A DNA stretch of 64,000 nt from Marsupella aquatica. Lineage: Eukaryota; Plantae; Marchantiophyta. The stretch spans positions 22,293,844 to 22,357,843 of the forward strand of contig OZ316893.1 of assembly GCA_973895155.1 (NCBI GenBank), given 5' to 3'. Made by a program: the position numbers and the translations under genes. Positions 2,700 through 54,370 of the stretch are shown here, one piece after another. Below the pieces are notes generated by a model. It worked only from the letters and a program-made list of their open reading frames with translations, was not told where the DNA came from and did not search any database. The first letter of the stretch is position 1. Each line of letters opens with the position of its first letter.

Positions 2700-3120
2700 C
2701 CACACCTTTTGCAAACTTGAAAGCATCGCAAACAACAAAGGAAATCAAAAAACAAAACTCGCCTTTGCGAAGTATCGCGCATCGCAATAGAATCGCAAAC
2801 TGCAAACCCCAAAGGTTCGCATCCGGTCTTTCGCAAGACCTTCGCAACGCCTTCGCAACTTGCGACACTAATAGAATCGCAAAGGACTCACATTTAAGCG
2901 ACTCCGTGGGCGTCGCGAGAGGCTTGCGATAATAATCAAGCAGTTAAATATTTGCAATCCCAGAAGTTTGGTAATCGGTTTGCGATATTAAGTTAATGGT
3001 AGTTATGCCATGAACATGGCTTCGCATTTTTGTGAACGTATGTGGTTTGCATAATGTTTGCGATACCTTCAATATGGTAAATATGCGAATTGGGTTGTTC
3101 GCATAGGTTTCGCAAGATGT
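2700..3120. repeat. CACTA-1 left subterminal repeats (TTCGCAA/TTGCGAA-type, both orientations)
   Basis: Many TCGCAA/TTGCGA motifs immediately inside the TIR. Confidence 0.85.
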
Positions 3121-3368
3121 CTTGAGGCTAGGGTTTAGATTTAGAGTTTTGAATTATGGTTGGGGTCTTGTCGTCCAACACGGAGAATGAGGTTTGAATC
3201 AAAATTGCTTTATAGAAAATTGATAGGTACACAAAAATTAGGGTTTCCTAAACCCTAAACCCTAGATGGGTGTCATATGACAAGCTAGGTCCCTATAAGA
3301 CTACCCATATCAAAACTATATACTACACTAAGTAAATGGGCATCCCATAGGCACTACACCACCAAGCT

Positions 3369-5235
3369 CTAGAATGGGGTCCTCCTACTCCTTGTCGCCG
3401 GCCTCTTCCCCTTGTCCCTCTTGCGACGATCCGGACGTGGCACAGGAGGTGGTGCTGGCTGCTCCTCCACATCTGGTTCCTCCTCGTCCTCGTCCTCATC
3501 CTCTTCCTCCCCCTCCTGCTGGGAAACTCCTCCTACTGGTCCAGATCCACTACTCCCTCCTACCTTGGGCCCCTTTGTCGTGGTCCCCTCATTGTTCTCA
3601 TCGGTGCTGCTGGTATCACTGGCATCCTCATCATCCTGTTTGCACAGCACAACGCCAAATTGGTTTAGGTTTACGGAATGAAAAGATAAGTGGATTGGGT
3701 GGGAAAAACTGAAGGGGATACATGCACTTACAGTCGCCAACTCTGCGTCAACCAAGTCAAAGAGATGTTTGGCTCCATGCGCAGCTCCTATCTCCATCTC
3801 TTTTGCTGTTATCTTCCTGCGGTACCTCTTATACTACCACAACCAAACATTCCAAAACCAAAATCAATCGAGGTTAATATGCTATAAACCCAAGAAAAAT
3901 GCATGGAGGTGCTAATAGGGTGCCCCCTAACACAAAACTGGGCTCAATAACCCTTAGCGGTTTTTTTAAAACATAATACACACTTGCAAAACTCCCCACT
4001 TCGCAAATTCAAATAAATTGGCTGTTTGCGAAGTAGTTTGCGAAGCGAGTTATTTCGCAATAGCTTCGCATTTACAACTTTAAAAAATGCCATGATAGAC
4101 TTTGCGAAACATTTGCGAAGCAACCCGCATCGCAAAAGCTTCGCAAACTCTGTTTTTAAAAAATTCCGAGAAATCTCTAAGGCACGCAATGTGTCAGGGT
4201 GACCTAAAGTACAAGGCAGGCCGTAAGAAAGAAACAAGAGGTATGCAGGGGGGGCATTGCAGGTTTGGATAGCAATTGAAAGCAAGGAAACAGAAGCAGG
4301 GGAGGAGAGGGCCCACTCACAAAGTGTGCTTTGAGGCCGGGAAGTCCACCTTGGCCCATCTTGTGCGTGGTCTTGGGCCGTTTGCTAACTCGCTCAGCTG
4401 CAAGGATGAATTTTTGGGGTGGTGCACCCACTTCATCCACAATGTGCTGCATGTGAGACACTTTCTCAGCCATTGCCTTGAGCTCTCGGTCGGACTTCCC
4501 GGCCTTCTGTGCCTTGGCTTCCATCTCCTTCCAGAAGAGAAGGTTCCTGGCAGCTCTCATCTGCACCTCCACTTTGTAAAAGGCATTCCACACGTCCTCA
4601 GTGAATTGCAGTGGCCTCCTCACGTTTCTGTACTCCTCCAAGTTTGCCAGGTAGGCCCTTACCTTCTTTCTATCATGGTACCATGCTTGAGACATTGAAT
4701 TGGAAATTCTATCTACAAGCCACTGTTCATCAATCTCTGCTCCATTTCGAAATGAATCTTTGATTTGACTCATTACTTTCTTCTGGTCTGCCTTGCTGAG
4801 TTTCCCCCACTCAACTCCTCGTGCAAAATTGGAGCGCACCATAAGCCTGATAGTGCTCTTTGCCCCGGTGTAGGCCAGTTCAGTAGGAATGCCTTCGATC
4901 AAGGCAATCATAGGCAGCTTCTTCCTCTCTTCCTCCTTCTTTCGCTGCTCCTCCCGTTGTGCTCTTATCTCATCTTGTTCCTCTCTCCTCCTCTTCTTTT
5001 CTAGGGCAGCAGGTGAGACTACTCCTGCCTTGGCCCTCTCCTCCTTCTTACGCTTCTTCTCTCTTGCCTTCTGTTGAGCTGCACTCCTTTGCTCCTCCTC
5101 CCTTGCAATGTTCCCTGCATCTACTCCCGTTTGCAAGGCTTGCCCAAGGATTGCACTCAAAGAAGCAATCCCTACTGGTGTAGTCAAATCTAAGTGGCTC
5201 AACTGTGCTGCATTGAGGTGCTCAGCCATCAAATC
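3369..5235 (-). pseudogene. CACTA TnpA-like (Ptta/En-Spm type) gene, main exons 5235-4321, 3833-3732, 3635-3369; interrupted by solo LTR
   Basis: ORF 4204..5232 with EDVWNAFY...KTTHKMGQGG (resembles the W...H..G pattern of TnpA-type proteins); phase-0 GT-AG introns 4320-3834 and 3731-3636; acidic C-terminus with basic tail. Confidence 0.6.
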
Positions 5236-6725
5236 TGTGATGCCTAGATAGGAATCACTCAGCCAGTTAAGTGGGTAAAGCAGGAAGGCACCCTAGGAAC
5301 ACCTTAGTATAGGGACAAAACAAGGAAAATATAAATAATTAGGGGCAACCATGGAACCCGGGCCGAGGCCGGAGGTAAGGACGCTGAGGGTGAAAACTCG
5401 ATTAGGGTTAGGGCGCGTTAAGCATTGGCGGCTAGGAAGGATCAACGAGAAGAAGGACCGGCAGAGGAGAGGGGTAAGGAGCGCTTGCAGGAGATGGTGG
5501 CTCATTTGCGAGCACGAACTAGGCAGACGACTACGGGAGGCCAACTACTGTCAGCTGCTTAGGCAAGCACTCGGGGAGAGAGTAGATACCGACGATCGAC
5601 CTAAGGAGGGTATGAGCAACGTCAATCAAGTGGCACATTTCTGGGGATGCCTGTTCGAACGGGCAACTGAGTACATCAAGACTTACGAGGACGAGGAATC
5701 AGAAAGGGCAGCTCGAGAACGGCAGGAGCTCGCTCGATTGTGGGAGCTGCAGAAGACGGCTTTCTTAGGAGGCAAACTCATCAAGGACGAGTTCCTGTGG
5801 ACGCCTACTTCCAATCAACTCGACGATCTTCTGTTTTGCAAAGACAGCATCGTCGGCATCCGAGAGGCCATCAAGAACTGCAACGACATACACTGGGAAT
5901 TAAAGGGTAGCACGGAAAGGTGGACCCAAGCAACGGTGCTAGGAGAAACCTCCACAGCAGCAGAGATGAAGAGGAAGGGAGCCGTCAACGATGAAGCCAC
6001 CCCGGCAAAAAGAACGAGGTTGGCGGCACCAAAGAAGCCAGCCGAGCAGCAGAGCAGGAGGCAGGGAGAAGCCGAAGAGGAGGAGGTCGATCCCATCAAG
6101 GCCATTCCAACCAGGGATGACACCTGGAAGGGCTGGGCGGCAACCCTACCGGTGGAAGTGCAACTACATTTTGCACGGGAGGAGGATGCATGCTTTATGG
6201 CCATGCAGACCAAGAAGTATCAAGGCTTCATGGCCGGATCCGGCTTAGAGGCCTTTGTAAGATTACCATGGCTGAAGCCGGAGGTACCGGAGTCAGACCT
6301 ATTAGAATTTGTGGGGTCATGGGAACCCGAGACCAATTGCACGAGGATATATGGGAAGGATTTCTATCTTACTTCCAAGGTAATTGCCGAAGTGTTTTGC
6401 TTGCCGATAGGCAATAAGACCAAAGTTGATACCAGGAAGACCTTGCCTGACAAGGAGTTCCGGTCGTTCCCCGGGCCATCAACGAAGAATGGCTTCTTCC
6501 GGAACACCTGCACCAACCCGCACATAGGAGAGATGATCAACTTCTTGCGGGTGACCATGCATTGTAACTTGCCGAGGGCAGAGATCGGCAAGGCACAGGT
6601 CTATCTGGCAGAGAGGCCAGACCCAAGCCGGGACTACAACGGGTACCTCCTCAACCAATTGAAGAAGATCTTAAAGGAGGAGCAGCAGGTAATCGGCATG
6701 GGGAGCGTGTCGTGGCTTGGCTATC

Positions 6726-9700
6726 TGTCACGTCGTAGGCTTTGGCCTTAACTCAGACTTCAGCTTAGACGGGCACATCCCTCGTAAATCTGAGGGTTCG
6801 GGCAGGAAGGGAAGCACGTAATGCACCTTATTCTCGTAAACTAGCGCTAAGTGCGCATACTGCTAAATACGGACACCTCCTAGGTATGGTTTGTGTTCCG
6901 CCGCCGGAACGTACCCTAGTCGATAGCAGGATCGACCCCGGCTTAAGGGCTTCTAAGCCTTCGTGCTGTCCGCCTTCGATCCGGATTCGATGATACAGGT
7001 CCTCAACCCGTGCTCGCAACCACTTACCCGCAGGCTGCACCCTATGCACGTCTCGGGTAGTGCGTTCGGCCCGGCGCTGCCACCCATATACGAGAAACCC
7101 ACACACATATGCGCACACATGCATACAATCTCGATTTACACGAAGGAAAAATGATGGGAAAGGATTTTTACTACAAAGGGAACATATGCGTACACTTAGT
7201 TGACACGACAGCCCTGGAATGCACAGGTTCAAGACCAAGGGTGCACACTACAACGGAGCCCGGCTCCGCACTCGCCCGGCAAGCTTAGTCCTACCCCCTC
7301 CCCTTGGTACTCTGTCATTCCCAGAGGTCGGGACTCCCCGCATGTCCCGCGGATGTCCGACTCTGAAACAAAAAATCCCCCCTGCCTCTACCGAGGGGTG
7401 CACTAAATACTAAGAGCCGAGGAACGGGGTGTCCTCCCGCCGAAGATTCGCTGACCAAGGTCCTAACTAAGCTGACAGTCAGGCCGGAAAACGGCTGTGT
7501 CTTATTAGAAGATCCTAATCTACGCAGGCTGGACAGCAGGGCAGCGCTGCCGTACCTAAGGCAGGTGCCTGTCCCAAGAGCCTGACTAAGCCAATCCTAA
7601 TCCTAATCTATTCCTACTCCGCCGCTAATGCCTGGCACGCTTGCCAGAGCCGCCCAAATGGGAACGGCCATCCCGCTGCCTTCGAAGCCTGTCATTGTCC
7701 GCTTTGAGGAGCTGGACCTGGTCCAGCAGAGATTCGTTCTCTCGCCTCGCCGCGTCCGTCTCCTCTGCTGCCTCCTGACATGCCTCCTCCAGCTGCTGGG
7801 CGTCGCTCGCCAGTTTACTCGCCAGCTGGTCCTGCTTCTCGGCCTCGGTTTGGAGCCGCGCCATCTTGGCCTGCAGCGTGGCTATCTCCGTCGCGTCTCG
7901 CTGGGCTCGCTCCTCGGCCTCCTCCAGGTCTTTCTGCCAGGTGACAGCTTGTTTCTTCAAACTGTCAATCTGGTTCCGGAGTCGTGTAATCTCGGCCTCG
8001 TTCCCAGCTTTGGCCTGTTCGGCTAGGGCGATAAGAGCGTACGCCTTTGCTAACAACTCATCGGCGGCTGCAACCTTGGGTTGTAGTTGCAGAAGCTCAG
8101 CCTCTTGAGCCGCCACTTCGTTCTTTAGGTACACGGACTCCACCCGGTACCGCTCTATCCTCTGAAGGGCCTCCGACTGGGCCCGCCCTACCTTTACGGC
8201 GGCAACCAACTCCTGATTGAAGAAACAGGCTACCTTCCGAGCCATGAACTCCCCGGTATCCCGGGCAATTTGATGAGAGAAATCTCCCAGAAGCCCGTTC
8301 AGAAACGTACCCTGTACGAAGAGTTCCGGGTGGTCCAAGTTGTGCCTGTCCGGATTTGGGCACGGGCAGACATCAACACGCGCAGGGGCCGGGGCAGTGA
8401 CGTCCAGCCCTGGGGACATAATGTTGGAAGGGGCCGGAGTATCCTCCTGCAGCGATGTCCGGTTCTCCGGAATTGCCACCGGCGGGTCCTTGGGAGACCC
8501 GGGTTCGGGTAAGACCTCTGCCGTACCAACTTCTATACTTAGCCCGGCTAGTTGGGTCGCATCAACGGTTGCGACGACCGACCCCTCCGGCGCCTCCTCG
8601 GTTACGATTACAGCTATTTGTGGAGGTGGGGTGGGTGAAGCTGGCGTGTCCACTGGACTTCGGGCCTCGGGTTGGGGCCGTCTCTCCAATGTCGGAAAAA
8701 CCCACCTAGCTGGGACCAGCTTTGTAACGTTGATGCGGGGAAGGGTTCGTCGATCAAACCGGGCGTACCACTCAAGAATGATTTCGATGTGGCTAGCGAA
8801 ATACGCCTTCCCGCCAATGTACAGCGTCTTCCTTCGCCGCTCCATCTCTTCATGGAATTTCTTAGCGAAGTACGACGCCCACTTCCTAGGTCGATAGTTC
8901 TCGACCTGGATGACCTGGGCGGCGGAGATCTCCCCCCGGGGTTCCATCATGTGGAGAGCGTACCTCTAGAACTCCAGCCGCTCAGCTATCTCGGGCATGA
9001 GGCAGGTCCTCATCACGAACCCGTTGTCTACTGATCCCTCTGAGGGAAAACTTGAAGATTGGTACTTGGCCCCCTTGCCCCCGGGAGCCCGTGATTCGAC
9101 CGATGGTCACCTTCGGGTAACCCGAAGATCATCTTGAGCCGTTCTTCTGTGAGGGACATATTCCTTCCCCGCAGCCGAGTCTGTTGACGTACGTCGTCAT
9201 AATTCTTGACGAATTCTGTCATGTCCTCCCCGTAGTACCTGCAAGTGTTCCAGGGGAGAGAGGCGAGGTGCTCAAATCCCTGAGTCTTCAGGTACACCGC
9301 ATGCTTGGGATGGAGGATGTTGCTGTGAACGTTTTCCCCCATGCGATGCATCGTTACCTTGGCTACGGCTACCGTGGCCAACGGTAACCCGAATGCACTG
9401 GCGGATTCCTTCCTCTTCTTTCCCCGTGACTGACTCGGGGAAGGTGATACTTCCCCATCCTCCCGATCGGGCCTGGGGAGTGCCACTGCGGTTGGTAACG
9501 GGCCCGGGGCGGCCACGGTCACCATGTTGTCTGCTGGGGCCGCTCCTGGGGTCAGAGCAGGGGGTGGGGACGATATAGTGTCGGCCCCCCGAGCGCTTGT
9601 TCCTCTGGGCCGCCTGGTCAAGGGTGGGGTAGCCTCGTCGTCATCGCTAAGATCCACCGCGTTGATGACGGAGCGTACCTGTGCTGGTTGGGTGATAGGT

Positions 9701-10733
9701 GGTGGGGTTTGGCTAGGCTGCGGCTGAGGCTGAAGCTGAAGTTGAGGTTGCATGGGCACGGGTACGGGTACGGGTACGGGTACGGCTGAGTTGGTCATGT
9801 TGGTTGATGGCCGAGTTCCCATGAAGCTCTGTAGGTGCTGGTAGAAGTTCTCCGAAGCGAGTGCGGACGCCCTTGTCGAACGGTTGGTACTGGACTCGCC
9901 GTTAATGACTGCCCGAACCTGGGCAGGGATGTGGTCGAAGTGATGTCGCTGCAGGTCGATTGTACCCGGGATATTGAAGACCTCGTCCGGAAGCCGAAGC
10001 AATGCTTCCCAGAACCCGATATATTTGTCTCCGTCAAAGAAGTACCCAGATACCTCAGCTGGTCGGTAAAGCTCGCTCTGAGACGGGTAGTCAAAGTTAA
10101 GGACGTAGTGGTGTCATCCTGCTAGGCGGATGGCTCTCTCGTATTCGCGTTCGATCTCGTATCGGCGCGGGTTGGCGTGTTTCAATGAATCGGCCAAGTG
10201 CCTTCCGGTAGATAGGAACTGCGTCCAGAATCGAATGGCCAAGCTGGAGAGGATCGTGTGCGACATTCAGAGGAGATAGTAGTGGCGACCTAGAGAGAAC
10301 GAGAGAGCTGGGGTCGAAGCTGGCGCGCGGACTGATGGACTGGTGCACTACAAAGGGTTGGCTTCCCTTTTATACTTTGAGGGCTTGTCGATCCCCGACG
10401 TCTCCTCGACGCCCATAGGTTGAACCGCTCACGCTTGTGGTGTACCAGCCACTCCGCCGGTCTGAGTCAGCGTGCGTCAGTGGCCGCTTCCTTAAGTTCG
10501 TTATACGGACCCGAGGGAGGGGCCCCTCCATGCTCATAACCCGGGTGTGCGAATAGCGACCCGCCGCCAGCCCGAACCTGAAGTCCCCCTTATTGCCTAA
10601 TGATGTCCTACCCCTAATGATTACCTAAATACTGTCGTTATGCTAATAATAGCGGCCTAAGACCCACCTAACGCACGTGCCGAGCGCAGTTAGACTGAAT
10701 CACTCATTTAACCGCCGTACCGGCGGCGTCACA
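6726..10733 (-). mobile_element. Family-B element, probable solo LTR (4008 bp) carrying a homologous accessory gene
   Basis: TG...CA termini (minus strand starts TGTGACGCC, like family A TGTGATGCC); 5-bp TSD CTATC (6721-6725, 10734-10738); no gag/pol. Confidence 0.85.
7625..10266 (-). pseudogene. Family-B accessory gene (PMD/Transposase_32-like region + coiled coil); stops at 10114-10116 and 8966-8968, frameshift ~9080-9110
   Basis: Manual translation from ATG 10266: MSHTILSSLAIRFW...; motif GFEHLASLPW...EFVKNYD...TRLRGRNMSLTEERLKMIFGLPEG matches family A GLEAFVRLPW...EFVGSWE...TRIYGKDFYLTPKVIAEVFGLPIG. Confidence 0.85.
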
Positions 10734-13700
10734 CTATCACATGCCGCTGTTGTGCCGGTATGCCAGAGGTCAGACTTTTGCCCCAGTACTTCCCCTGCAG
10801 GTAAGGGCACCCGAGGAAGCTCCAACGCCGAGGCCATTGGCTGAGAAGCCTCAACCACCTGTTAGCCCTACGATCGAGCAGGTGTGTAGGCCCAGGAAGG
10901 AGGACTTGCCGATGCAGCAACCAGGCATGCAGAGTCTGCTGAAACTACTGGAGAAAGAAAATAAATCGGCATCGGCAACAACAACGGCAACGGCAACAAT
11001 GCAGGACACTACTACAGAGGTAGGCCTACACCGGCTCACAAGAGAAAACCCCTTTGCTGGAGACAAGGAGAGAATCAGGCCGGAATCCAAGCCAGGTGTT
11101 CGAATGTATGTGGGAATCTCAAGCTCCGAATCTGAGGCAGAATTGCCTGAAGCTCCTACCGACGAAGAGGAGAGGGAGAAGCCGGACGTCCAAGAAGTAG
11201 AGGAGGCAGTGGAGGACTGCAGCCATGATAATTCCGGCTATGGGTCGGACCATCACGTTCCAGGAGTAAGGACCTATGGCCGGTTTGTCCCCACACTTCC
11301 AAGGGTAGTGCGAGGGGACCCCAACCAGCAGAGTAGCCCTGAGTCTCCCCCACCAGATGTTGCTCCCCCGAGCTTTGACGGCATAAAACAGACGGTGCAG
11401 GAATTTCAGGAGCGAATCAGGCAGGAAGAGGAGGCAGCCCTGGCTAGGGAAAAGGATTTACCAGGAGGAGATTGGCCGGAGGACATCAGGCGGCTAGCTG
11501 AAAAAGGAAGCAAACCTCTAGCCACGATTGAAGAGATCCGTAGGACGGCTTGGGAGCAGAGGCCGCGATGGGCGATGCCAATCACTTCTACTTACTCCAC
11601 CTACGCTAAGAATAGAGCCATGGAGTATGGTGAGATGTGTGGGGAACTTGCGCTCGGCATCTTTGGAGAGGAGTTGGAGGTAGGACCCTTTTTCCATAGG
11701 GAGTAGTTGGAGAAGCACCAATTAGAAGAAGCGGTGGCTTTAGAGAGAAGCAAGAAGGACGAGGTCATTCGGCGGCTTAGGAGGATGGAAGCCGAGATTG
11801 AAGATCTAAGGGCGGCCAAGAAAGCCCAAGATGAACTGCGGATTAAACGGCATGAGTTGAACATCATGCAGGGGCAGTTGGACACCGCGCAGGCTGATAA
11901 TCAGAATATCAAGGATAAACTGACTCAGACGCAGGGAGAGTTGGCCGACACGATCAAAGAGAGGGAGAAGTGGAAGCGAGAGCTGAAGAATACAGAGGAG
12001 GCCCACATAACAGCCAACAGCCGGGCCATGGCGAAGACCCAAAGAAAGGAATGGGCATTGAAGGGGGAGCTCGAGAAAATCCACGGAGCCCTTGAGCTGA
12101 AGGAGGCCGAGTTAGGGAAATCCTATCAAGGGATTATGGCGCTGCAGCAGGAGCTTGCGTCCCTGACGGCCAGCTTCAAGGCCGACCTCAGGGAGAAGGA
12201 CGAGATGCTCGAACAGACTTACGCCAAGATGAACCAGATGGAGTCTGTCATCATTGCAGAGCTCGACAAGGAGCTAAGAGCAACCCGGGAGGAGAGGACT
12301 ACCTTGAAACAAGAACGGGAGGAAGCCCAAAAGGAACTAGAGGAGGCACGCAAGGACCTGGATGAGACCCAGGAGGAGTTGGAGGAAATCACGAGGAAGA
12401 TAGAGAACCTCCAGCGGCGGGCCGACAACCAAACGGAGCGGCTGAAGAAACAAGCCGCAGTATTTAAGTGCTTGTCTTCATCAGGCCCAACTCCAATTGG
12501 GGCAACCAAGTTACCAGGAGTGGTACTGGCCGAAGAAAAAGCCGCACCACCTGCACCAGTGCCGGAAGTAAGTGGGAAGGGGAAGGGACCAGCTGCCGAA
12601 CCAGAAAAGAAGAAAAAGCGGAAACCTTCAGGGTCAAGGAGTAATCCGACTCCACAAGCCGTGGTGACCAAGGAGGTAGAACCAGCACCATCCTCCGGCA
12701 TGAATACGGCAATAGATCCCGCTATCATCATAGGTGGGGGTGGTGCGGCCCAAGCCGAACTACTCAGTAATGAGGCCGGTATTCCAGATCCGCCTCTTGA
12801 GCAGGCCGGGGAGACCGTAGCCGAGGCTGAGGCCGTAACCGATTCCCGAGCCGATGCCGACGCCGATGGTGGACCCAGTCAGGCCGATGGAGAGTTGACT
12901 CAGTCAAGGGCAGGTAATCTGTCAGAGAATGAGCCTACGGCACTGGCTGAGGAGGAAGCGTTGGGGGCGTCCATTAAGGATCCACCACCGGTGTCGTGAT
13001 GGTGCAAGGGCGCCATTCCTTTTAGGGAGGGTGGACGTGGAGGGAGGAGGCGTGAGTGGGCAGGGCGGGCGCTGATCTCCAAGTTTAGGATTAGGATCAG
13101 GACCAGGAGCGGCCCTGACACTTAGCTTAGTGGGATTGCGGTCCCACTGGTAGGAGCAACACTTGTGCTCCTGCCTTGCTGTACATAGGTAGATTCGGGC
13201 AAGTAGATTACTGTTAAGTAGATTAGGCTTACGATGCAAAGAATGGTGGATCCACTACCAGGATAAGTACCTGGGCAGCGGGGAGCTCAGGGCCTCTTCT
13301 TTAGCAAGTTTTTAGTTTGCACCAGCCGGGCTGGGATCAAGTAGTACGAGAAGCTCTCAGTTAGTCATACAGTGACCCTTGTGTATATTCATGTTTCCTC
13401 ATGCCTAAGAGCTGAATAGAGTTTGGCCTCACGGCTTAGTTCGCAAAGCTTGTGTATGAGATGTACTGTTTGTATGGCAAGTGCATGGTATGACTCAGTC
13501 AGAATGAGTCATTTTGCTATTTGTGTGTCGCATTAACTTGTGTGAAGAGTGCCCACATCAACCAGAAGGAAGGAAAGTAAGCAGGGGAGTGAGAGTTGGA
13601 TGTGTCGAGCTGAGAGAGGTCTTAGCGGCTTAACCAAGCCTATTGGGGATCATTCCGGCGGCGGAATCCAAACATACCTAACAGGAAGACAGGGGAAGAC

Positions 13701-13913
13701 AGGGGAAGGCCTATATTAGGCCGGCTACGTATCTCATGACCCGATGAAGGATCTGTCCAGTATATGTGTGTAAAATGTTAATAGTAGTAGTAGAAGGTTA
13801 GCAGCGTCCCATGCCGCTAAGCCGCGGAAACGGCCTCGCCAAGCGCGAAACCTGCGGGAATCGGCTTGAGCTGGGGGGTTTCTTGGGTTTAGGGAGCCAT
13901 GGGACGCACCACA

Positions 13914-14017
13914 AAATCGGTCCATCGATTCCTCTCCTGCTCCCCATTGCCTTCATTCCCATTGCCACTGTCACTCACCCCTGCCCTATCACCTCCATTT
14001 GCTCCACTGGAATCCAT
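13914..14017 (-). pseudogene. 5' end of the CACTA-1 TnpA-like gene
   Basis: ATG at 14017 gives MDSSGANGGD...RNRWTD, joining in frame to LMAEHLNAAQ after removing the LTR and one TSD. Confidence 0.7.
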
Positions 14018-15653: not shown

Positions 15654-16469
15654 GTATCCAATAGGCCTAGACCTGCGGCACAAGCACCCTATGTCCCATC
15701 ACAAGGTGTTCTAGATGCTATAGGCAATGCATTCTCAAAAGCCTTGGGTCTAGCGGCAAGGCCCACCAGTCCTAGGGAAGTTGGGGTTGAGGCTATTGTC
15801 CCAAGAGGGAGAAAGCGTTCCAAGAGGCGGGCCCGAGGGGATACTGATTTGTACAAGGCAGTGGTTACGGGTCGGTGGGGTGATTGTGAGTTCACTGGCA
15901 GATGTGTCCCTATCATCAAGGACTGGGATCCTGAGACTCTTGGTTTGCCACAACAGCTTTCCTACGGTGCGGAGGTAGAGGTTTGGGGTAGACGTTGGGT
16001 TATCAAACCTTCCACACTTGGGGATAGACATGGCTATGGAGTTTTTGCCTGTGAGGACATCATTGTGGATGCCGAGAGTGGTAGAGGTGGACGCGGCCGA
16101 GAGGGGCCTACTTTGTTTCCTTATGGTGGACCCATCTACAAGAGAAGACATTGGAACATGATCCTTGCACAACACCCTGAGTGGAAGACTTATGCATTGG
16201 ACATGGATACTTTTGATGGAAACACTAGAAGGTATAGTGAGCAGCGTGTCATAGATGGGGACCCCATACGGACTGGGAATATTGTTGGTTTCATAAACAG
16301 TACCGTGGGGACTCGCCCTAAGCGTAGGCAAAATTGTGAGTGGGTTTTCATTGAGGGTCCTCCGCCAGCACCTTATGGCCAGACATATCATCATGACCAT
16401 TGCCTAGTTGTAGCAACAAGGACCATTAACTCAGGGGATGAGTTATTTACTCACTATGAATGGGATTAG
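15654..16469 (+). CDS. SET-domain (lysine methyltransferase-like) exon inside CACTA-1
   Basis: Motifs HGYGVFACEDI, PYGG, IDGD...GFINST, NC, ATRTINSGDELFTHY; open frame from acceptor AATAG|15654 to TAG 16469. Confidence 0.85.
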   Translation, partial: VSNRPRPAAQAPYVPSQGVLDAIGNAFSKALGLAARPTSPREVGVEAIVPRGRKRSKRRARGDTDLYKAVVTGRWGDCEFTGRCVPIIKDWDPETLGLPQQLSYGAEVEVWGRRWVIKPSTLGDRHGYGVFACEDIIVDAESGRGGRGREGPTLFPYGGPIYKRRHWNMILAQHPEWKTYALDMDTFDGNTRRYSEQRVIDGDPIRTGNIVGFINSTVGTRPKRRQNCEWVFIEGPPPAPYGQTYHHDHCLVVATRTINSGDELFTHYEWD

Positions 16470-16645: not shown

Positions 16646-19600
16646 AATGTGCGACCCTCTCCAAATATGTTACCACGGAGATTGAGAGCAACATATCGAG
16701 AAATGGGTATGCCAGAAGAAGGACATGGATCAGAGTCACACTCCTCATCAAGTGCTAGTGGAAGCAGTAACCCTGATGAAGAGGTACCTCGGACGGATGA
16801 ACAAGTAACTGATGACCGGGATAGAGCCATGGATGACTTTATGGTTGATTGGTTTGGTGCCGACAACCTTGGTGATGACCTTCCCAATGAAGGGCAGGTG
16901 CCCCCCAATGATCCACGCCCAAGACATACCCCTGAGGGACAACGCCAATGGGAAGAAGCAGAGGAACATGCCCGAACACCTATCTATGAGGGTGCTCGTT
17001 TGAGTCATCTTTCAGCCATCTTGGGGTTGATGAACCTACAGGCCAAACACAAGGCAAGCAATGCCTTGTTATCTGATATGTTTGCACTTTGCCATGACCT
17101 TATGTTGCCCACTGAGAATGTGTTGCCAGCAACTTGGAAGGAGGCAAAGAGTGTTCTCTCATCTATTGGCATGGAATATCATATTGTTCATGCATGTGTG
17201 AATGATTGCATGTTATTTCATGGGGCCAATGCAAACATGACACAATGTACAACATGTGATGAGCCTCGCTATGACCCCAACATGCTAACAAAGAAGGTGC
17301 CAAGGAAGGCTGTTCGTTGGTTTCCCATCATTCCTCGGTTGTTGCACATGTATCGGTGTTCTGACTTGGCAGAGTTGATGGTATGGCATAAGACTCATCG
17401 ATCAGAGTCTGGTGTCATGCGGTTGCCAGTTGACTCCCCTGCTCACAAACATATTGAGGCAACATGGCCAGACTTTGCACATGATCCTCGCCATGTGAGG
17501 CTAGGATTGGCATCTGATGGAGTTAGCCCTCATTCACTTGGAGGAAAGGGGCAACCTACATCAGTTTGGCCTGTGGTTGTCATGAATTATAACCTCCCAC
17601 CATGGCTATCCATGAAGAAGGGGTTCCTTTTATTGTCTTTGATTATCCCAGGTCCAAAAAAGGTGAAGAACTTTGACACTTACTTGGCACTATTGGTTGG
17701 AGAACTTCAAAAATTATGGAATGGAGTGTGGGCATATGATGGCAGGAAAATTACAGGAGGTTTTCCACGTGTCTTTCAATTGAGAGGGATCATTTGTTGG
17801 ACAATGCATGACTATCCTGGTAAGATATATGACTTCCATGCCATTTGCAACCCTTCAATAATGTGTAGTTCCTATTGATGTTTCTCATGTGACAACTCTA
17901 ACATAAATTTTGCATGGTTTGATTTCTTCTATGTAAGCAGGGTTTGGTTTTGTCTCTGGATTGCAAACTCAGGGGTACAAAGCTTGCTCTACTTGTGGCC
18001 CAAGCTTAGAGGACATGGCCACATATTGTTCATGGATTAGAAAGATTGTTTATATTGGGCATACAAAGTTTCTTCCCATGGGGCATGAGATGAGGTTTGA
18101 CCCACTTCTATTCTCCTCCTTTGACATGCCATTTGGTGATGAGCGTGAAATTCCTGATGCAACAAGTTTTGCACATTGGAAGTCACTAGCTGATAGGGTG
18201 GCAGACCCAAATGATTCCTTCACCTTTGATAGGACAGGTTTGACCAGGTGGAGTATACTAGCCACTTTGCCCTATTGGTCTGAGTTGAAGATCCGCCATC
18301 TTTTAGACCCCATGCACATAGAGGGAAATGTGGGGAAGGCTTTGATAAAGCATTTTTATGGGGAGAAGGACACTAATTTTAGGGAGGCATGCGAGGAGAT
18401 GGAAATGCATCCAGATGTTTGGGTGACAATTGATCCTATCACAGGTGTGGAGAATCGTCCTTCTGCTCCTTGGGTGTTGAGTGTTGGCCAAAGACGTGAA
18501 TTTCGGAACCGTATAGGAGAGATGCGGTTTCCTACAGGCTATGGTGCCAACCTTCGAAAAGCTTTTGGGATGGAGGACAATCACAAGTGGCCACGATATC
18601 TAAAGACACATGACTATCATCGCCTATTGCAGCATATATTGCCAGTGGCAATTATAGGTATAGGGAGTGAAGAAGTGCAAGATGCCATCTGGTCATTGGG
18701 TCGTTTGTTGAGATGGATATGCTCAAAGGAGATATATGTAGAAGAGATCCCTGGGATGGAGGTATTGGCAGCTGAGGTGGTATGCAAGTTGGAGAAAGCC
18801 CTTCCTCCTTCCTTCTTTGATTGTCAGGTTCATTTACTTGTGCATCTTGTGCGGGAGGTTGCCATTGCAGGTCCAGTGCATTGTAGATGGATGTATTGGC
18901 TTGAGCGTTACATGGCGGTGTTGAAGGCTTATGTACGTAACCGTGCACGGGTGGAGGGAAGCATAGCTACAGGATACTTGGCAACAGAGAGTATATTTTA
19001 TTGTAGTAACATCTTGGCCACCATTGATCCTACTTGTCCATGTACTTGGATGGAGGAAAGAGAAGAGGAGGAGGACCGTTTAACAGGTGCCACAAAAACA
19101 CGCATGTTGACATCAACAGAGTGGTCACAGTTGACAACATTTATGTTGAGTAATAGTAATATCATGGAGAAATGGAGAGAGTTTTATGAGAATGCCAAGA
19201 GAACAAGTCAAAGAGCAAGAATTTTTCCTAAGATGCATGAGTATATGAAGCAAAAGTTGCTTGAGTTGGATGACATGGTGACACAAGGAGGAGATGTGTC
19301 CCACTTTCCTACCATCACAGATGACGTTCGGACCATTGTTCATGGCCCTTTGAGAGTGGTGACATCCAAGACGGCTATGTGGACACAAGGGAGACACTTC
19401 AGGTCCACTAGTACCTAACCTTTCTTCCTCTATTAATTCATGTAGACCTTATTTTGATTAGTTATTTCTATTGTTTAAAAACTTTCTATTATCATTAATG
19501 ACATCCATAACTGTAATGTTGGCTTCTATATTTATGCCATAGGCCATGTGGGTTTTGGCTATTTAGGGATGGGTGTCATATTTTGATGATTATTACATTA

Positions 19601-20609: not shown

Positions 20610-21095
20610 TTTGCAAACAATTTGCGAAGCTCACAAACTCTCACCGGACTCGCAATTTCTATGAATCTTCTCGTTTCTCAATATTTCCATACTACACTCT
20701 TCGCACACTTGTGATGCAAAATCAATCACAAATTTCATATTTTCACCGTTTTGCAAATCTTCCATCCTTCGACATTCTTAAACTTGTCAAACAAATACTA
20801 TCGCAAAACATTTTCAATCCAATCTTCTTCGCAAATATTTACATGAGTTAGTTTCGGAGTCGGCGAGCGATTTTTCCGTCTTCGGAAGGCGCCTTTCCAT
20901 TCAACGCGTTTTGGTAAAATTTGCAAAACCACGTACTTCGCAATTTATTAGCGATATAATGCGCTTCAGCTATTAGATTTGCAATAGGGATAGAATCACA
21001 AATTGCGATGCGGGTTGATTCGCAAAATATGCAAAGCGCCGCCCATCGGAAATACAAGAGCGTCGACAAAAATACCTTCGCAAAAGTGTCAAATA
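20610..21095. repeat. CACTA-1 right subterminal repeats (TTCGCAA-type)
   Basis: Repeated TTCGCAA/TTGCGAA next to the right TIR. Confidence 0.8.
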
Positions 21096-21105
21096 TGTTG
21101 TAGTG

Positions 21106-22840
21106 AGTAGTTCGATTGTAGACAAAATTAAAAAATTTCACTTGCTTATGTAGTCCTTGTCGCACCTCCTCTACCATGGCCATTTCTATCATTGGTAATC
21201 TTTTTGGTTCTCCTACGGGAAGTTTTGGACTATTATCATCCGTCCACGACCACATCTCAATACCTTCTCTTGGGAGCCAATCATCCTCTTGGCATTTCAT
21301 TTTGTATTGAAGGCATGGCATACCATCATCACGCACATACAATCGAAATAGTCGTGGTTGCAAATGCCCCACCAATGAGTCCCCTCCTTTAAGCAAGTAT
21401 GGTTCCAAGTATGATTTAAAATCGGGCACCTCTTGCACGAAATGGGGAACTGGATGTGGAGTCCTTGCCCCCATTAACAATGACATTAGATCTGCCAAAG
21501 AATAGGTTGGGTTACGCATTAAACTTTCAGAGAAATGGCCAAACATAGCATCAACATCCTCATGAGTATGTCCGACCATGAGAAATCCCAGATGAATCTC
21601 TTCAAAAACATCTCTTGTCGTCAGTAGGGACAAATAACCCAACACATATCTGTTTTTGTTATCTCCTACACAATTGTCAAGTTGTAACTTCAAAACTCTT
21701 GGAAGAGGCTTGAAGGTAGTAGACGCATCCAATGAGTGTGACTTCGCTGCAAAAATTTAAGAACCATATATATTAGGGTCAATAATTAATTTAGAGCCAA
21801 AACATTTTCATAGAGCCTACATATTTTCTTAGACATATAGAATAACCAATAATATACCATCATGGGCAACGATTTATGAACATAAACTCAAATGAACTAT
21901 AGTTTCTAGTCTGAAATAAATAGTTAACGGTTCAAGCCATGGTTCTCACTAAGTTTTGCATACACTAACAACAAACCATGGGTCACACTTTCAATAAGCT
22001 AGTTACAATGAACCATGGTTTGTGCTCTCAAATAAACTAACAATAAAGAATGGTTCATACTTTGAAATAAACTATCAACGAACCATGGTTTGCACTTATC
22101 ACATAAAATAACAAACAAGGATATATCCTAAGAAAATGACTCTCACATGAGCGAATAATAACAATCTTTATGTCAACTGACAATGAACTCTGGTTGACAC
22201 CTTGGAAGGTCACATCACTTACAAAGGAAGCATGGTTGATACTGAATATGGCATAAAAATAACAACACTTATTTGCATTGAAGTGAAATAATTACCTAGA
22301 TTTGATATTTCGTCCTTAAATGCTTCACAAAGTTTTCCCTCCAATATAGGTCCTCGCCCCTCAAGCAAGTTTTCAAATAGTTTTGTGGAATCTGGCCCTT
22401 CCACTAAAGATTTGATCATCGGTTCTGGATTTTCCAACATTCGAAGTATTGTGTCAAGTGAACCAATTGTGGCATTGGCATCACGTGCCCACACTCCAAC
22501 ATTATATTGAGCAATAGCTTTTGGACCATGGCCATGAGTCAAAATACCAGTCAAGGTAATTGGAAGTTTAATCGCACCATCCACTTCTTTTGGACAAAAG
22601 GGCATCCTTGGTAGTGCAGTCTTACAATGATCCATTTTATCATGAATTATGCATAAGACCTGTTTTGGATTATCAACAGACTGGCGTCTCCAAGAGTGAT
22701 ATAATAATCTGCCTTCGGTATGATCACGATGATGAGCGATTTCATCCCTCTTTAAAATCTCAATCTCTTCTTTCACACCGGTCAGATTTGCTTTCCGTTG
22801 CATCAACTCACTACAAGTTGTACACTTGGAAAAGTTATTG
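21106..22840 (-). pseudogene. Catalytic core of Sola/DUF7869-like transposase (exons 22840-22296, 21746-21106)
   Basis: FSKCTTC, IIHDKMD, LQLDNCVGDNKN and FLMVGHTHEDVDAMF motifs; phase-1 intron 22295-21747 (GTAATT...TTTTTGCAG). Confidence 0.8.
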
Positions 22841-25800
22841 TGTGGTGCGTCCCATGGCTCCCTAAACCCAAGAAACCCCCCAGCTCAAGCCAATTCCCGC
22901 AGGTTTCGTGCTTGGCGAGGCCGTTTCCGCGGCTTAGCGGCATGGGACGCTGCTAACCTTCTACTACTACTATTAACATTTTACACACATATACTGGACA
23001 GATCCTTCATCGGGTCATGAGATACGTAGCCGGCCTAATATAGGCCTTCCCCTGTCTTCCCCTGTCTTCCCCTCCGTCTTGTTAGGTATGTTTGGATTCC
23101 GCCGCCGGAATGATCCCCAATAGGCTTGGTTAAACCGCTAAGACCTCTCTCAGCTCGACACATCCAACTCTCACTCCCCTGCTTACTTTCCTTCCTTCTG
23201 GTTGATGTGGGCACTCTTCACACAAGTTAATGCGACACACAAATAGCAAAATGACTCATTCTGACTGAGTCATACCATGCACTTGCCATACAAACAGTAC
23301 ATCTCATACACAAGTTCTGCGAACTAAGCCGTGAGGCCAACTCTATTCAGCTCTTAGGCATGAGGAAACATGAATATACACAAGGGTCACTGTATGACTA
23401 ACCGAGAGCTTCTCGTACTACTTGATCCCAGCCCGGCTGGTGCAAACTAAAAACTTGCTAAAGAAGAGGCCCTGAGCTCCCCGCTGCCCAGGTACTTATC
23501 CTGGTAGTGGATCCGCCATTCTTTGCATCGTAAGCCTAATCTACTTAACAGTAATCTACTTGCCCGAATCTACCTATGTACAGCAAGGCAGGAGCACAAG
23601 TGTTGCTCCTACCAGTGGGACCGCAATCCCACTAAGCTAAGTGTCAGGGCCGCTCCTGGTTCTGATCCTAATCCTAAACGTGGAGATCCGCGCCCGCCCT
23701 GCCCACTCACGCCTCCTCCCTCCACGTCCGCCCTCCCTAAAAGGAACGGCGCCCTTGCACCGTCACGACACCGGTGGTGGATCCTTAATGGACGCCCCCA
23801 ACGCTTCCTCCTCAGCCACTGCCGTAGGTTCATTCTCTGATAGATTACCTGCCCTTGACTGAGTCAACTCTCCATCGGCCTGACTGGGTCTACCTTCGGC
23901 TTCAGCCTCGACACCGGCCTCGGCAATACCCACGGCTTCGGCCTCAGCCACTCCCTCGGCTTCGGCCTCCCCTTCCCCTAGGGTAGTTGGATCCCTAGCC
24001 GTGACCCTGTCTGGGGTCGGTGCTGGGTCTACCTCCTTGATCACCACGGCCTGTGAAGTCGTATTACTCCTTGACCCTGAAGGTTTCCGCTTCTTCTTCG
24101 TTGGTGGCTCGGCAGCTGGTCCCTTCCCCTTCCCACTTACTTCCGGCACTGGTGCAGGTGGCGCGGCTTGTCCTTCGGCAATTACCACCCCTGGTAACTG
24201 GTTTGTCCCAACGGGAGATGGACCTGCTGCAGCTAAGCATTTAAGTACTGCGGCTTGTTTCTTCAGCCGCTCTGTTTGGTTGTCGGCCCGCCGCTGTAGG
24301 TTCTCCATCTTCCTCGTGATTTCCTCCAACTCTTGGGTTTCATCCAGGTCCTTACGTGCCCCCTCCAGCTCGTTTTTGGCCTCCTCTTGCTCCCTGTGGG
24401 CTTCCTCCAATTCCTTCTTCAAGGTAGCCCTCTCCTTCTGGGTTGCTCTTAGCTCCTTGTCGAGCTCTGCAATGATGACAGACTCCATCTGGTTCATCTT
24501 GGCGTAAGTCTGTTCGAGCATCTCGTCCTTCTCCCTTAGGTCGGCCTTGAAGCTGGCCGTCAGGGACGCAAGCTCCTACTGCAGCGCCATAATCCCTTGA
24601 TAGGATTTCCCTAACTCGACCTCCTTCTGCTCAAGGGCTCCGCGGATTTTCTCGAGCTCCCCTTTCAACGCCCATTCCTTTCTTTGGGTCTCCGCCATGG
24701 CCCGGCTGTTGGCTGTTATGTGGGCCTCCTCTGTATTCTTCAGCTCTTGCTTCCACTTCTCCCTCTCTTTGATCATGTCGGCCAACTCTTCCTGCGTCTG
24801 AGTCAGTTTATCCTTGATATTCTGATTATCAGCCTGCGCGGTGTCCAACTGCCCCTGCATGATGTTCAGCTCATGTCGTTTAATCCGCAGTTCATCTTGG
24901 GCTTTCTTGGCCGCCCTTAGATCTTCAATCTCGGCTTCCATCCTCCTAAGCCGCCGAATGACCTCGTCCTTCTTGCTTCTCTCTAAAGCCACCGCTTCTT
25001 CTAATTGGTGCTTCTCCAACTGCTCCCTATGGAAAAAGGGTCCTACCTCCAACTCCTCTCCAAAGATGCCGAGCGCAAGTTCCCCACACATCTCACCATA
25101 CTCCATGGCTCTATTCTTAGCGTAGGTGGAGTAAGTAGAAGTGATCGGCATCGCCCATCGTGGCCTCTGCTCCCAAGCCGTCCTGCGGATCTCTTCAATC
25201 GTGGCTAGAGGTTTGCTTCCTTTTTCGGCTAGCCGCCTGATGTCCTCCGGCCAATCTCCTCCTGGTAAATCCTTTTCCTTAGCCAGGGCGGCCTCCTCCT
25301 CCTGCTTGATTCGCTCCTGAAATTCCTGCACCGTCTGTTTTATGCCGTCGAAGCTCGGGGGAGCAACATCTGGTGGGGGAGACTCAGGGCTACTCTGCTG
25401 GTTGGGGTCCCCTCGCACTACCCTTGGAAGTGTGGGGACAAACCGGCCACAGGTCCTTACTCCTGGAACGTGATGGTCCGACCCATAGCCGGAATTATCA
25501 TGGCTGCAGTCCTCCACTGCCTCCTCTACCTCTTGGACGTCCGGCTTCTCCCTCTCCTCTTCGTCGGTAGGAGCTTCAGGCAATTCTGCCTCAGATTCGG
25601 AGCTTGAGGTTCCCACGTACATTCGAACACCTGGCTTGGATTCCGGCCTGATTCTCTCCTTGTCTCCAGCAAAGGGGTTTTCTCTTGTGAGCCGGTGTAG
25701 GCCTACCTCTGTAGTAGTGTCCTGCATTGTTGCCGTTGCCGTTGTTGTTGCCGATGCCGATTTCTTTTCTTTCTCCAGTAGTTTCAGCAGACTCTGCATG

Positions 25801-27474
25801 CCTGGTTGCTGCATCGGCAAGTCTTCCTTCCTGGGCCTAAACACCTGCTCGATCGTAGGACTAACAGGTGGTTGAGGCTTCTCAGCCAACGGCCTCGGCG
25901 TTGGAGCTTCCTCGGGTGCCCTTACCTGCAGGGGAAGTACCGGGGCAAAAGTCTGACCTCTGGCATACCGGCACAACAGCGGCATGTGATAGCCAAGCCG
26001 CGACACGCTCCCCATGCCGATTACCTGCTGCTCCTCCTTTAAGATCTTCTTCAATTGGTTGAGGAGGTACCCGTTGTAGTCCCGGCTTGGGTCTGGCCTT
26101 TCTGCCAGATAGACCTGTGCCTTGCCGATCTCTGCCCTCGGCAAGTTATAATGCATGGTCACCCGCAAGAAGTCGATCATCTCTCCTATGTGCGGGTTGG
26201 TGCAGGTGTTCCGGAAGAAGCCATTCTTCGTTGATGGCCCGGGGAACGACCGGAACTCCTTGTCAGGCAGGGTCTTCCTGGTATCAACTTTGGTCTTATT
26301 GCCTATCGGCAAGCCAAACACTTCGGCAATTACCTTGGGAGTAAGATAGAAATCCTTCCCATATATCCTCGTGCAATTGGTCTCGGGTTCCCATGACCCC
26401 ACGAATTCTAATAGGTCTGACTCCGGTACCTCCGGCTTCAGCCATGGTAATCTTACAAAGGCCTCTAAGCCGGATCCGGCCATGAAGCCTTGGTACTTCT
26501 TGGTCTGCATGGCCGTAAAGCATGCATCCTCCTCCCGTGCAAAATGTAGTTGCACCTCCACCGGTAGGGTTGCCGCCCAGCCCTTCCAGGTGTCATCCCT
26601 GGTTGGAATGGCCTTGATGGGATCGACCTCCTCCTCTTCGGCTTCTCCCTGCCTCCTGCTCTGCTGCTCGGCTGGCCTCTTTGGTGCCGCCGACCTCGTT
26701 CTTTTTGCGGGGGTGGCTTCATCGTTGACGGCCCCCTTCCTCTTCATCTCTGCTGCCGTGGAGGTTTCTCCTAGCACCGTTGCCTGGGTCCACCTTTCCG
26801 TGCTACCCTTTAATTCCCAGTGTATGTCGTTGCAGTTCTTGATGGCCTCTCGGATGCCGATGACGCTGTCTTTGCAAAACAGAAGATCGTCGAGTTGATT
26901 GGAAGTAGGCGTCCACAGGAACTCGTCCTTGATGAGTTTGCCTCCTAAGAAAGCCGTCTTCTGCAGCTCCCACAATCAAGCGAGCTCCTGCCGTTCTCGA
27001 GCTGCCCTTTCTGACTCCTCGTCCTCGTAAGTCTTGATGTACTCAGTTGCCCGTTCGAACAGGCATCCCCAGAAATGTGCCGCTTGATTGACGTTGCTCA
27101 TACCCTCCTTAGGTCGATCGTCGGTATCTACTCTCTCCCCGAGTGCTTGCCTAAGCAGCTGACAGTAGTTGGCCTCTCGTAGTCGTCTGCCTAGTTCGTG
27201 CTCGCAAATGAGCCACCATCTCCTGCAAGCGCTCCTTACCCCTCTCCTCTGCCGGTCCTTCTTCCCGTTGATCCTTCCTAGCCGCCGACGCTTAACGCGC
27301 CCTAACCCTAATCGGGTTTTCACCCTCAGCCTTACCTCCGGCCTCTGCCCGGGTTCCATGGTTGCCCCTAATTGTTTATATTTTCCTTGTTTTGTCCCTA
27401 TACTAAGGTGTTCCTAGGGTGCCTTCCTGCTTTACCCACTTAACCGGCCGAGTGATTCCTGTCTAGGCATCACA
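22841..27474 (-). repeat. 3' LTR (4634 bp)
   Basis: Direct repeat of 33699-38334; directly follows the PPT on the minus strand. Confidence 0.96.
23763..27359 (-). pseudogene. Accessory gene copy in the 3' LTR, with two premature stops (26976-26978 CGA>TGA; 24576-24578 CAG>TAG)
   Basis: ORFs 26976..27359, 24576..26975 and 23763..24521 are one frame matching 34620..38219. Confidence 0.92.
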
Positions 27475-30400: not shown

Positions 30401-30729
30401 TCGGCTGGACTAGCCGAGTCGGTCCCTTCCTTGGTGTCCATAGATTGTCCCCTTACCGGTCTATTCGGTTTTGAATTAGTGGTCGGCTCCCCTTCCTGCC
30501 TTGGCTCTGGATCGTGTCTGTCCATCTCATCCACTTCTTGCTCCTGAGAGTTAGGCCGCTGTGCTCTCTCGGCTTCTAATAGGGCCTCAATTTGTTCTGC
30601 CCTCGTAATCGGCTTGTATGCCGATCCCTTGGTATTTAATTCCTTGCCGATGATCGATGGCGTTGTGGACCCCGTCGGCTCTGCCACAACGCCTGCAGAA
30701 AATCCACTGTCCCTGCTACTGCTCCCCAC
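27463..30729 (-). pseudogene. pol: pol: reverse transcriptase, RNase H, integrase (stops at 29224-29226 and 29062-29064)
   Basis: RT: WVSPIVIVPKK, DYRKLN, DGYSGYNQI, FGLCNAP, FIDD. RH: FHVFVD, ERNYSTTERE, TDH. INT: H..GGH/CxxC, WGIDY, SDRG, NGLTER, WLGPF. Confidence 0.95.
27478..27487 (-). promoter_or_regulatory. Polypurine tract (AAGTGGGGAG)
   Basis: Purine-rich run 3 nt before the 3' LTR TG. Confidence 0.75.
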
Positions 30730-33629: not shown

Positions 33630-33676
33630 TACCTACGCTTCTGTTCTAACTTCATATCTCACGGCTTAAGAAATGC

Positions 33677-33694
33677 CCCCTCCATCTAGCGCCA
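33677..33694 (-). promoter_or_regulatory. Primer-binding site (TGGCGCTAGATGGAGGGG)
   Basis: Starts with TGG (complement of tRNA CCA) 4 nt after the 5' LTR end; primer tRNA identity not determined. Confidence 0.85.
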
Positions 33695-34619
33695 AAAATG
33701 TGGTGCGTCCCATGGCTCCCTAAACCCAAGAAACCCCCCAGCTCAAGCCGATTCCCGCAGGTTTCGTGCTTGGCGAGGCCGTTTCCGCGGCTTAGCGGCA
33801 TGGGACGCTGCTAACCTTCTACTACTACTATTAACATTTTACACACATATACTGGACAGATCCTTCATCGGGTCATGAGATACGTAGCCGGCCTAATATA
33901 GGCCTTCCCCTGTCTTCCCCTGTCTTCCCCTCCGTCTTGTTAGGTATGTTTGGATTCCGCCGCCGGAATGATCCCCAATAGGCTTGGTTAAGCCGCTAAG
34001 ACCTCTCTCAGCTCGACACATCCAACTCTCACTCCCCTGCTTACTTTCCTTCCTTCTGTTGATGTGGGCACTCTTCACACAAGTTAATGCGACACACAAA
34101 TAGCAAAATGACTCATTCTGACTAAGTCATACCATGCACTTGCCATACAAACAGTACATCTCATACACAAGTTCTGCGAACTAAGTCGTGAGGCCAACTC
34201 TATTCAGCTCTTAGGCATGAGGAAACATGAATATACACAAGGGTCACTGTATGACTAACCGAGAGCTTCTCGTACTACTTGATCCCAACCCGGCTGGTGC
34301 AAACTAAAAACTTGCTAAAGAAGAGGCCCTGAGCTCCCCGCTGCCCAGGTACTTATCCTGGTAGTGGATCCGCCATTCTTTGCATCGTAAGCCTAATCTA
34401 CTTAACAGTAATCTACTTGCCCGAATCTACCTATGTACAGCAAGGCAGGAGCACAAGTGTTGCTCCTACCAGTGGGACCGCAATCCCACTAAGCTAAGTG
34501 TCAGGGCCGCTCCTGGTTCTGATCCTAATCCTAAACGTGGAGATCCGTGCCCGCCCTGCCCACTCACGCCTCCTCCCTCCACGTCCGCCCTCCCTAAAAG
34601 GAACGGCGCCCTTGCACCG

Positions 34620-38219: not shown

Positions 38220-38234
38220 GGTTGCCCCTAATTG

Positions 38235-38240
38235 TTTATA
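38235..38240 (-). promoter_or_regulatory. Candidate TATA box for the LTR-encoded gene
   Basis: TATAAA ~95 nt from the LTR 5' end; family B has TATAAAAG at ~10367-10374 upstream of its ATG. Confidence 0.4.
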
Positions 38241-38334
38241 TTTTCCTTGTTTTGTCCCTATACTAAGGTGTTCCTAGGGTGCCTTCCTGCTTTACCCACT
38301 TAACCGGCCGAGTGATTCCTGTCTAGGCATCACA

Positions 38335-45413: not shown

Positions 45414-45601
45414 CCTTTTGATGGCTTTGATTAAAGCTGCTGTTGCATACCGTGAAGCTGGTAGAAAACAATTGAAGTCTTTTTCAAAACAAGTACTGTA
45501 TAAAAATGGTAATTATGCAACAGCAGCTTTCGGCGAAGCAGGTTTAAGCAACACAGTCAAAAGGGTATGCAATAGCAGCTTTAATCAAAGCCATCAAAAG
45601 G
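45414..45601. repeat. 188-bp foldback / MITE-like element with 38-bp inverted arms
   Basis: 45414-45451 vs 45564-45601 are reverse complements with 1 mismatch; no clear TSD. Confidence 0.7.
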
Positions 45602-54180: not shown

Positions 54181-54370
54181 CTACATTTTGCCAGAATCCA
54201 AACTACTCTATGCTGTCCCTGGGAGAAAATTAAGTCAAACATTTCAAAATATCTGGTTTCTTTGAACATTCAACATGTTCTTTAAAGAATATCCTTGACA
54301 CATCTTGCCGATAGTATTCTTATGATCAAATTTGTTTTTGTTGTGAAGCAGAGCGAGAACGCACATAATC

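Follow-up and report, generated by a model that had tools for sequence, protein, structure and literature searches.

Extra open reading frames (ORFs) between the long terminal repeats (LTRs) of plant retrotransposons are well known from reviews, and their function is an open question. The closest described cases are the sense extra ORFs of Athila (Athila ORF-1, PF03078; Transposase_32, PF20167), which lie between pol and the 3′ LTR in one copy per element (PMC7264820). In PMC11728184, PF20167 is described as related to Athila ORF1 and as present in an Athila sense ORF, e.g. ORF(+) of sunflower Athila 14. Here we describe a 64,000-nucleotide stretch of the liverwort Marsupella aquatica (assembly GCA_973895155.1, contig OZ316893.1, positions 22,293,844 to 22,357,843; 'the window', whose own numbering is used below), in which a 4008-bp insertion (6726-10733, minus strand; family B) is nested in a copy of a Ty3/gypsy retrotransposon family (family A). 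Our preferred reading, to which we give a probability of about 0.6, is that B likely represents, by one of its solo LTRs, a further non-chromovirus Ty3/gypsy family distinct from A, that the large sense gene in its LTR was inherited together with that of A, and that the encoded protein is a predicted nuclear coiled-coil regulator similar in kind to Athila ORF-1/Transposase_32. As in Athila, an extra sense gene would be associated with a non-chromovirus Ty3/gypsy element; in A and B, however, it lies in the LTR, so that an element would carry it twice and a solo LTR once.

Other systems share single aspects of this arrangement. A complete protein gene in the U3 region of the LTR is found in mouse mammary tumour virus, whose sag gene resembles A and B in layout but encodes a membrane protein of about 320 amino acids of a vertebrate retrovirus, unrelated in sequence and function. 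Chromatin-tied accessory proteins are represented by the plant mobile domain (PMD, PF10536) ORFs of Ogre, host MAIN/MAIL1 and VANC, for which the analogy is functional only, no PMD match having been obtained for A or B. According to two preprints, MAIL1 and MAIL2 associate with DNA motifs and counter Polycomb silencing (bioRxiv 10.1101/2024.09.27.615353) and VANC structurally resembles MAIL1 (bioRxiv 10.1101/2024.04.02.587720). Conserved accessory genes such as Retand TRP28, Grande gene23 and PvRetro13 ORF2, some of them nuclear, some with SMC-like coiled coils and some with their own promoter (PMC7264820, PMC11963269), differ from A and B in being antisense and internal, and the LTRs of Retand measure 0.3-1.2 kb. 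Retrosat2/RIRE3/RIRE8 combine an LTR of over 3 kb, many solo LTRs and an extra sense ORF (ORF0) with terminal letters similar to those of B, as a comparison with the RIRE8/Retrosat2 LTR ends given in PMC3485330 shows; unlike the gene of A and B, ORF0 is there placed upstream of gag-pol and not in the LTR, a comparison made by description only. One survey sorts extra ORFs as upstream or downstream only (PMC6317226), and LTR-borne cases could hide in its supplements. A literature search aimed at ORFs inside plant LTRs found no such report, most subscription papers being outside its coverage.

The insertion itself is as the earlier sequence-only reading had claimed, i.e. 4008 bp with TG...CA ends (TGTCACG from 6726, GTCACA up to 10733) and a 5-bp target duplication, CTATC, on each side (6721-6725 and 10734-10738, both plus strand). 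Exactly beyond these copies the sequence of the host picks up again, a family-A solo LTR with target duplication AAATC that is split by B (5236-13913, plus strand). The uninterrupted insertion site is present in other A copies of the window, as well as in public sequencing runs, where three of four contain the joint 6720-10734. B has a short imperfect terminal inverted repeat, and neither a direct repeat pair of its own nor a long inverted repeat (the best end-to-end direct match is 11 nucleotides); a terminal-repeat or large retrotransposon derivative (TRIM/LARD) and a DNA transposon with terminal inverted repeats, which would require the former and the latter respectively, were therefore rejected. 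Rfam gave no match within 5200-14000.

B appears in six of the nine runs listed (four studies; one run is possibly the source sample). In two of them, X1 and X2, thousands of contigs of varied identity, from under 90 to over 99%, lie along it, which marks it as a diverse repeat family, although contig depth along B does not equal copy number. At the left end, the one considered here, loose letters start at 6726 in three of four runs, and their agreement is low where several contigs contribute (0.48 and 0.50), which points to a fixed end with many different flanks. B is probably the solo LTR of an LTR retrotransposon family with gag-pol.

The B gene (7625-10266, minus strand) has about 880 codons, with its ATG at 10266 and its stop at 7625-7627, and is broken three times, by stops at 10114-10116 and 8966-8968 and by a frame change near 9100. 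It encodes an N-terminal domain of about 110 amino acids (9937-10266), a conserved core (8759-9306) and a C-terminal coiled-coil region (7650-8281, limits approximate), all on the minus strand. The sole TATA[AT]A match on the minus strand of B (10368-10374) lies 108 nucleotides upstream of the ATG and may serve as its promoter. Near 9100, other B copies differ in length by one base in all four runs; the extra base is carried by 89-100% of the depth in three runs, with 95% in X2. Among the 12 of 19 indels listed, the other two within the gene (+6 and +3) keep the frame, and the nine outside it are of 1-2 bases each. Among the 40 of 531 substitutions listed, 22 fall in the gene and 10 of these are synonymous; when split by hand, three of 11 are synonymous where more than 80% of the X1 depth carries the change, which is likely to mark substitutions private to this copy, and seven of 11 among the rest. 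As a sign of selection on the B gene, this split and the frame-keeping indels are suggestive only.

The same layout can be seen in a proven LTR in family A. A full-length element (22841-38334, minus strand; target duplication TATTG) has a compact gag-pol between LTRs of about 4.64 kb that are 99.2% alike (33699-38334, 5′; 22841-27474, 3′). Its internal region carries gag, reverse transcriptase, RNase H and integrase in Ty3/gypsy order in Pfam, and the Pfam scan found no chromodomain after the integrase, where the frame ends at the LTR. A candidate primer-binding site, starting with TGG, lies four nucleotides after the LTR (33676-33694, minus strand). A purine-rich tract stands directly at the end of pol (27475-27489, minus strand), and the frame of pol runs just into the 3′ LTR, to a stop within its first bases. 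With paired LTRs, these two priming signals, this domain order and no chromodomain, family A is a non-chromovirus Ty3/gypsy family. Its gene, intact with 1113 codons, lies inside the 5′ LTR, oriented like gag-pol (34620-37961, minus strand), and thus within true paired LTRs. Besides the full element, the window contains two complete A solo LTRs, i.e. the host of B and a second one with target duplication ATACA (59315-63810, minus strand), and a cut, more diverged A copy (1-1557).

The family-A gene is under purifying selection between subfamilies. Compared with the two diverged solo LTRs, the ratio of non-synonymous to synonymous substitution rates (dN/dS) for the whole gene is 0.41 and 0.36, with 0.21 and 0.28 for the core, 0.19 and 0.22 for the linker and 0.28 and 0.25 for the coiled coil, while comparison with the cut copy gives 0.22 in the coiled coil. 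Between the sister LTRs of the full element dN/dS is 0.98 (5 synonymous and 17 non-synonymous changes), as expected of decay after insertion. The start at Met87 (ATG at 37961), to which the sequence-only reading had pointed, is supported: the in-frame extension upstream of it shows no selection (synonymous/non-synonymous counts of 1/1, 3/4 and 1/5), and the relatives P0008 and P0020 start at the matching place. Met19 (38219) was rejected as a start, being 21 nucleotides from the start of the TATA box and within the extension that lacks selection. In a separate comparison of the A subfamilies (22841-38334 versus 59315-63810 and 5236-13913), the sequences are 96-99% alike along the LTR but 82-89% at LTR nucleotides 3000-3600, i.e. 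at the coiled-coil end and gene tail, so that the C-terminus may have been swapped or may evolve fast; differences amount to about 2% in the non-coding parts of the LTR, fewer than the 8-9% at synonymous sites.

The proteins of A and B are homologous in their core. With the B protein read with X at its breaks and its core aligned to A 202-381, 52 of 179 residues (29%) are identical. The score of 192 is reached by none of 1000 shuffles (maximum 59), so that the pairwise check of the repaired proteins proposed at the outset came out clearly, and pairwise tblastn gives E 5e-17. The coiled coils also align beyond chance (score 106; none of 300 shuffles, maximum 94), with a partial contribution from composition. 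The protein blocks quoted in the sequence-only reading are all present, but the N-terminal ones are not significant on their own, since the pairwise score is reached by 207 of 1000 shuffles in local and 38 of 1000 in global alignment.

N-terminal homology nevertheless becomes credible through intermediate proteins. P0020 and P0027 were found by their core only; the N-terminus of P0020 matches B (0 of 1000 shuffles) and A (4 of 1000) in the same register, that of P0027 matches B (0 of 1000), and an N-terminal profile built without B scores B at 16.0 bits against 8.9 for the best of 1000 shuffles. A Calypogeia protein bridges the N-termini of A and B, and the A-like N-terminal fragments P0005, P0008 and P0010 singly show no match to the B N-terminus. 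A and B share the order N-domain, linker, core, linker, coiled coil, with different linker lengths, and P0027 (787 amino acids) has N-domain, core and coiled coil in that same order. The earlier statement that both proteins end in a coiled coil fits B, which stops soon after it, but not A, which carries about 150 residues more.

An exhaustive protein search with A 1-400 yielded 21 proteins at E <=0.001, one of which, P0013, was dropped as a chance match to bacterial Ig repeats. Of ten relatives looked up, two, CAM6090539.1 and CAM6122807.1, are from Calypogeia fissa, a leafy liverwort, and the rest are Logan or metagenome proteins; by themselves these relatives would already suggest a liverwort or other bryophyte host. 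A word-index protein search found nothing for A 1-400, and a word-index profile search found nothing among proteins of 1303-3720 amino acids, an ill-chosen range, and two proteins at shorter lengths. Exact look-up of seven window proteins in the collection returned none, metagenome contigs contained no loci related to the second half of B or to P0027, and viral contigs none related to the A core or to the DNA motif described next.

The layout of the two LTRs is also closely matched. The stretch before the ATG measures 373 nucleotides in A and 467 in B, that after the stop 921 and 899, and TATA[AT]A occurs once per LTR, upstream of the gene and nowhere in the 0.9-kb 3′ part. In DNA, the little similarity to family A noted earlier is confirmed, as likeness is limited to one block of 29-36 nucleotides. 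This motif of 36 nucleotides with a 5-6-bp hairpin lies 155 nucleotides from the 3′ end of B (6881-6916, minus strand) and, in A, 242 nucleotides from the LTR's 3′ end (33941-33975, minus strand); 29 of its 36 nucleotides are identical, and its score of 45 is reached by none of 500 shuffles (maximum 41.5). As a separate observation, its core (6896-6909) is complementary to the 5′ end of B (10717-10725), a match that the 5′ end of A lacks. In our judgement there is good reason to attribute the gene-in-LTR layout of A and B to common descent. The sequence-only reading had called this layout an old, lineage-level trait under selection; gene homology stands, as does selection in A, while the layout, known here from two families of a single genome, is likely an old, lineage-level one given the 29% core identity, the same arrangement and the shared motif.

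As to the kind of protein, both have basic clusters resembling nuclear signals and neither has a membrane helix (maximum 19-residue hydropathy of 0.82 in A and 1.32 in B), so that they lack the hallmark of env-like proteins; the protein is predicted to be nuclear and oligomeric. In Atlas, which relies on language-model features, the A core is nearest to an unnamed cluster, followed by Transposase_32 (0.90) and ATHILA (0.89), and the core of P0012 likewise (0.84 and 0.83). From this remote likeness we rather favour an Athila ORF-1-type fold for the core, although A and B differ from the Athila extra-ORF families in having neither a Pfam match nor a membrane helix. Pfam assigns the core to no family and gives none of these matches for the ORFs of the window. 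Two AlphaFold models are of low confidence (predicted template modelling scores of 0.28 and 0.34), the best part in both being a helix, a beta-hairpin and a helix; with these weak models, neither Foldseek nor VIA-align (run on the first) found a meaningful match (best Z 3.6), and a PDB sequence search found none. The core motif is, we presume, similar to PMD. By analogy with other accessory proteins, a role as activator or anti-silencing factor may be proposed tentatively.

Such a locus could have arisen as follows. In an ancestral element, the accessory gene would have followed pol and preceded the 3′ LTR, and plus-strand priming may then have moved upstream of that gene, making it part of U3; that pol of A ends at the LTR edge, with a purine tract at its end, fits the uptake of such a once internal 3′ extra ORF. 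Active members would read the gene from the upstream TATA box, as a separate unit within U3, and the gag-pol promoter, R and U5 would occupy the final 0.9 kb of the LTR, which also holds the shared motif. A nuclear regulator would keep its own family expressed, as PMD and VANC proteins suggest by analogy. A full B element would later have inserted into an A LTR, recombination between its two LTRs would have left one, and this lone copy would have decayed.

A position of the gene in U3 rather than in R/U5 seems the better supported. Were it in R/U5, genomic RNA would start at the upstream TATA box with the gene as first ORF (like ORF1 of Ogre or ORF0 of Retrosat2), and gag-pol would be expressed by splicing or from a second promoter. 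The single TATA[AT]A match per LTR would fit this, as would donor-like GGTAAG sites of A at LTR nucleotides 139 and 235, but the same patterns find no donor-like site ahead of the B gene, a minus-strand strong-stop DNA of 3.6-4.5 kb would be required, and Athila-type extra ORFs of this kind are placed 3′ of pol (PMC7264820), which in A ends right at the LTR; we regard it as unlikely. Even if B is a real LTR, A and B might have taken up related accessory genes separately, with a convergent layout, in keeping with a core tree that does not pair A with B and with DNA similarity confined to a single motif. The same orientation, the near-equal flank lengths and the position of that motif at the same relative place make this quite improbable.

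It would take a still different history for B to be a stand-alone 4-kb unit with LTR-like ends, moved by the integrase of another element and never flanking gag-pol. Such a unit would explain the lack of a primer site or internal sequence among the loose ends listed at its left boundary, yet within B there are neither repeats nor primer signals that would give it a route to reverse transcription, and A, its homologue, which has solos in this same window, is a proven LTR, so this is very unlikely. Contigs that branch at the end of a repeat would moreover overlap it only briefly and be placed unreliably, which weakens the missing pair as an argument against an LTR. Finally, with the layout as we prefer it, the protein might, instead of regulating in the nucleus, serve in the particle or in movement or be env-like, since Athila-type sense extra ORFs have been called env-like and proposed for a movement or chaperone role (PMC7264820), and long coiled coils can be structural; the basic clusters and the missing membrane-spanning stretch in both A and B render this improbable.

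Several observations weigh against the reading of B as a solo LTR whose regulator gene was inherited with that of A. Among the loose ends listed, at the left end, no primer site, purine tract or gag-pol stands beside B. The core tree does not place A and B as sisters, its deep branches being unsupported. The shared motif beats its shuffles by a narrow margin, and the hairpin in it shows no unusual stability (z of -0.9 and 0.0). The Atlas scores are lead-level, with 123-151 shared features against 170 typical of true members, and none of the 19 aligned members matches Transposase_32, ATHILA or PMD in Pfam at E 10. The dN/dS values are not independent, as the diverged A solos are themselves close kin, 98% alike, which leaves about two independent comparisons. 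For the B gene, the extra base at 9100 is found in just 39% of the X1 depth, and the 40 of 531 substitutions listed do not show whether both stops are private to this copy.

Elsewhere in the window, a 271-codon frame at 15654-16469 (plus strand) with a SET-domain match (E 1.6e-5) lies just upstream of a CACTA transposase (16646-19418); a DNA transposon may here carry a gene of methyltransferase-like type. The full A element is flanked by a DUF7869 frame (20848-21756, minus strand; E 1.9e-38) and an unannotated 424-codon frame (38498-39772, minus strand), perhaps the two parts of a single element that the A insertion divided. The left end of the solo LTR that hosts B cuts a basic 362-codon frame with coiled-coil-like stretches and no Pfam match (4204-5292, minus strand), and beside the second solo lies a DUF4216 CACTA fragment (58581-59426, minus strand). 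At 42197-45415, AT-rich stretches of about 490 and 1250 bp are duplicated in tandem, the copies being 90-97% alike, and a 451-codon frame at 54347-55702 (plus strand) belongs to no clear family.

A and B can be taken as a known class of accessory gene at an unusual place, in two distant families. With 29% core identity and a 2.6-3.3-kb gene in both LTRs, they would demonstrate long-lasting stability of the layout, would help to explain LTRs of 4-5 kb in some non-chromovirus elements, and would extend the likely Athila ORF-1-type domain to liverworts. A bolder and rather doubtful proposal is that an old liverwort Ty3/gypsy lineage moved an Athila/PMD-type anti-silencing gene into U3, whereby each LTR, solos included, would amount to a complete gene on its own, encoding a chromatin regulator that is specific to the family and recognises a motif in the LTR it comes from. 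If this is true, LTR-LTR recombination, the main route by which the host deletes such elements, would then still leave many copies of the regulator gene in place.

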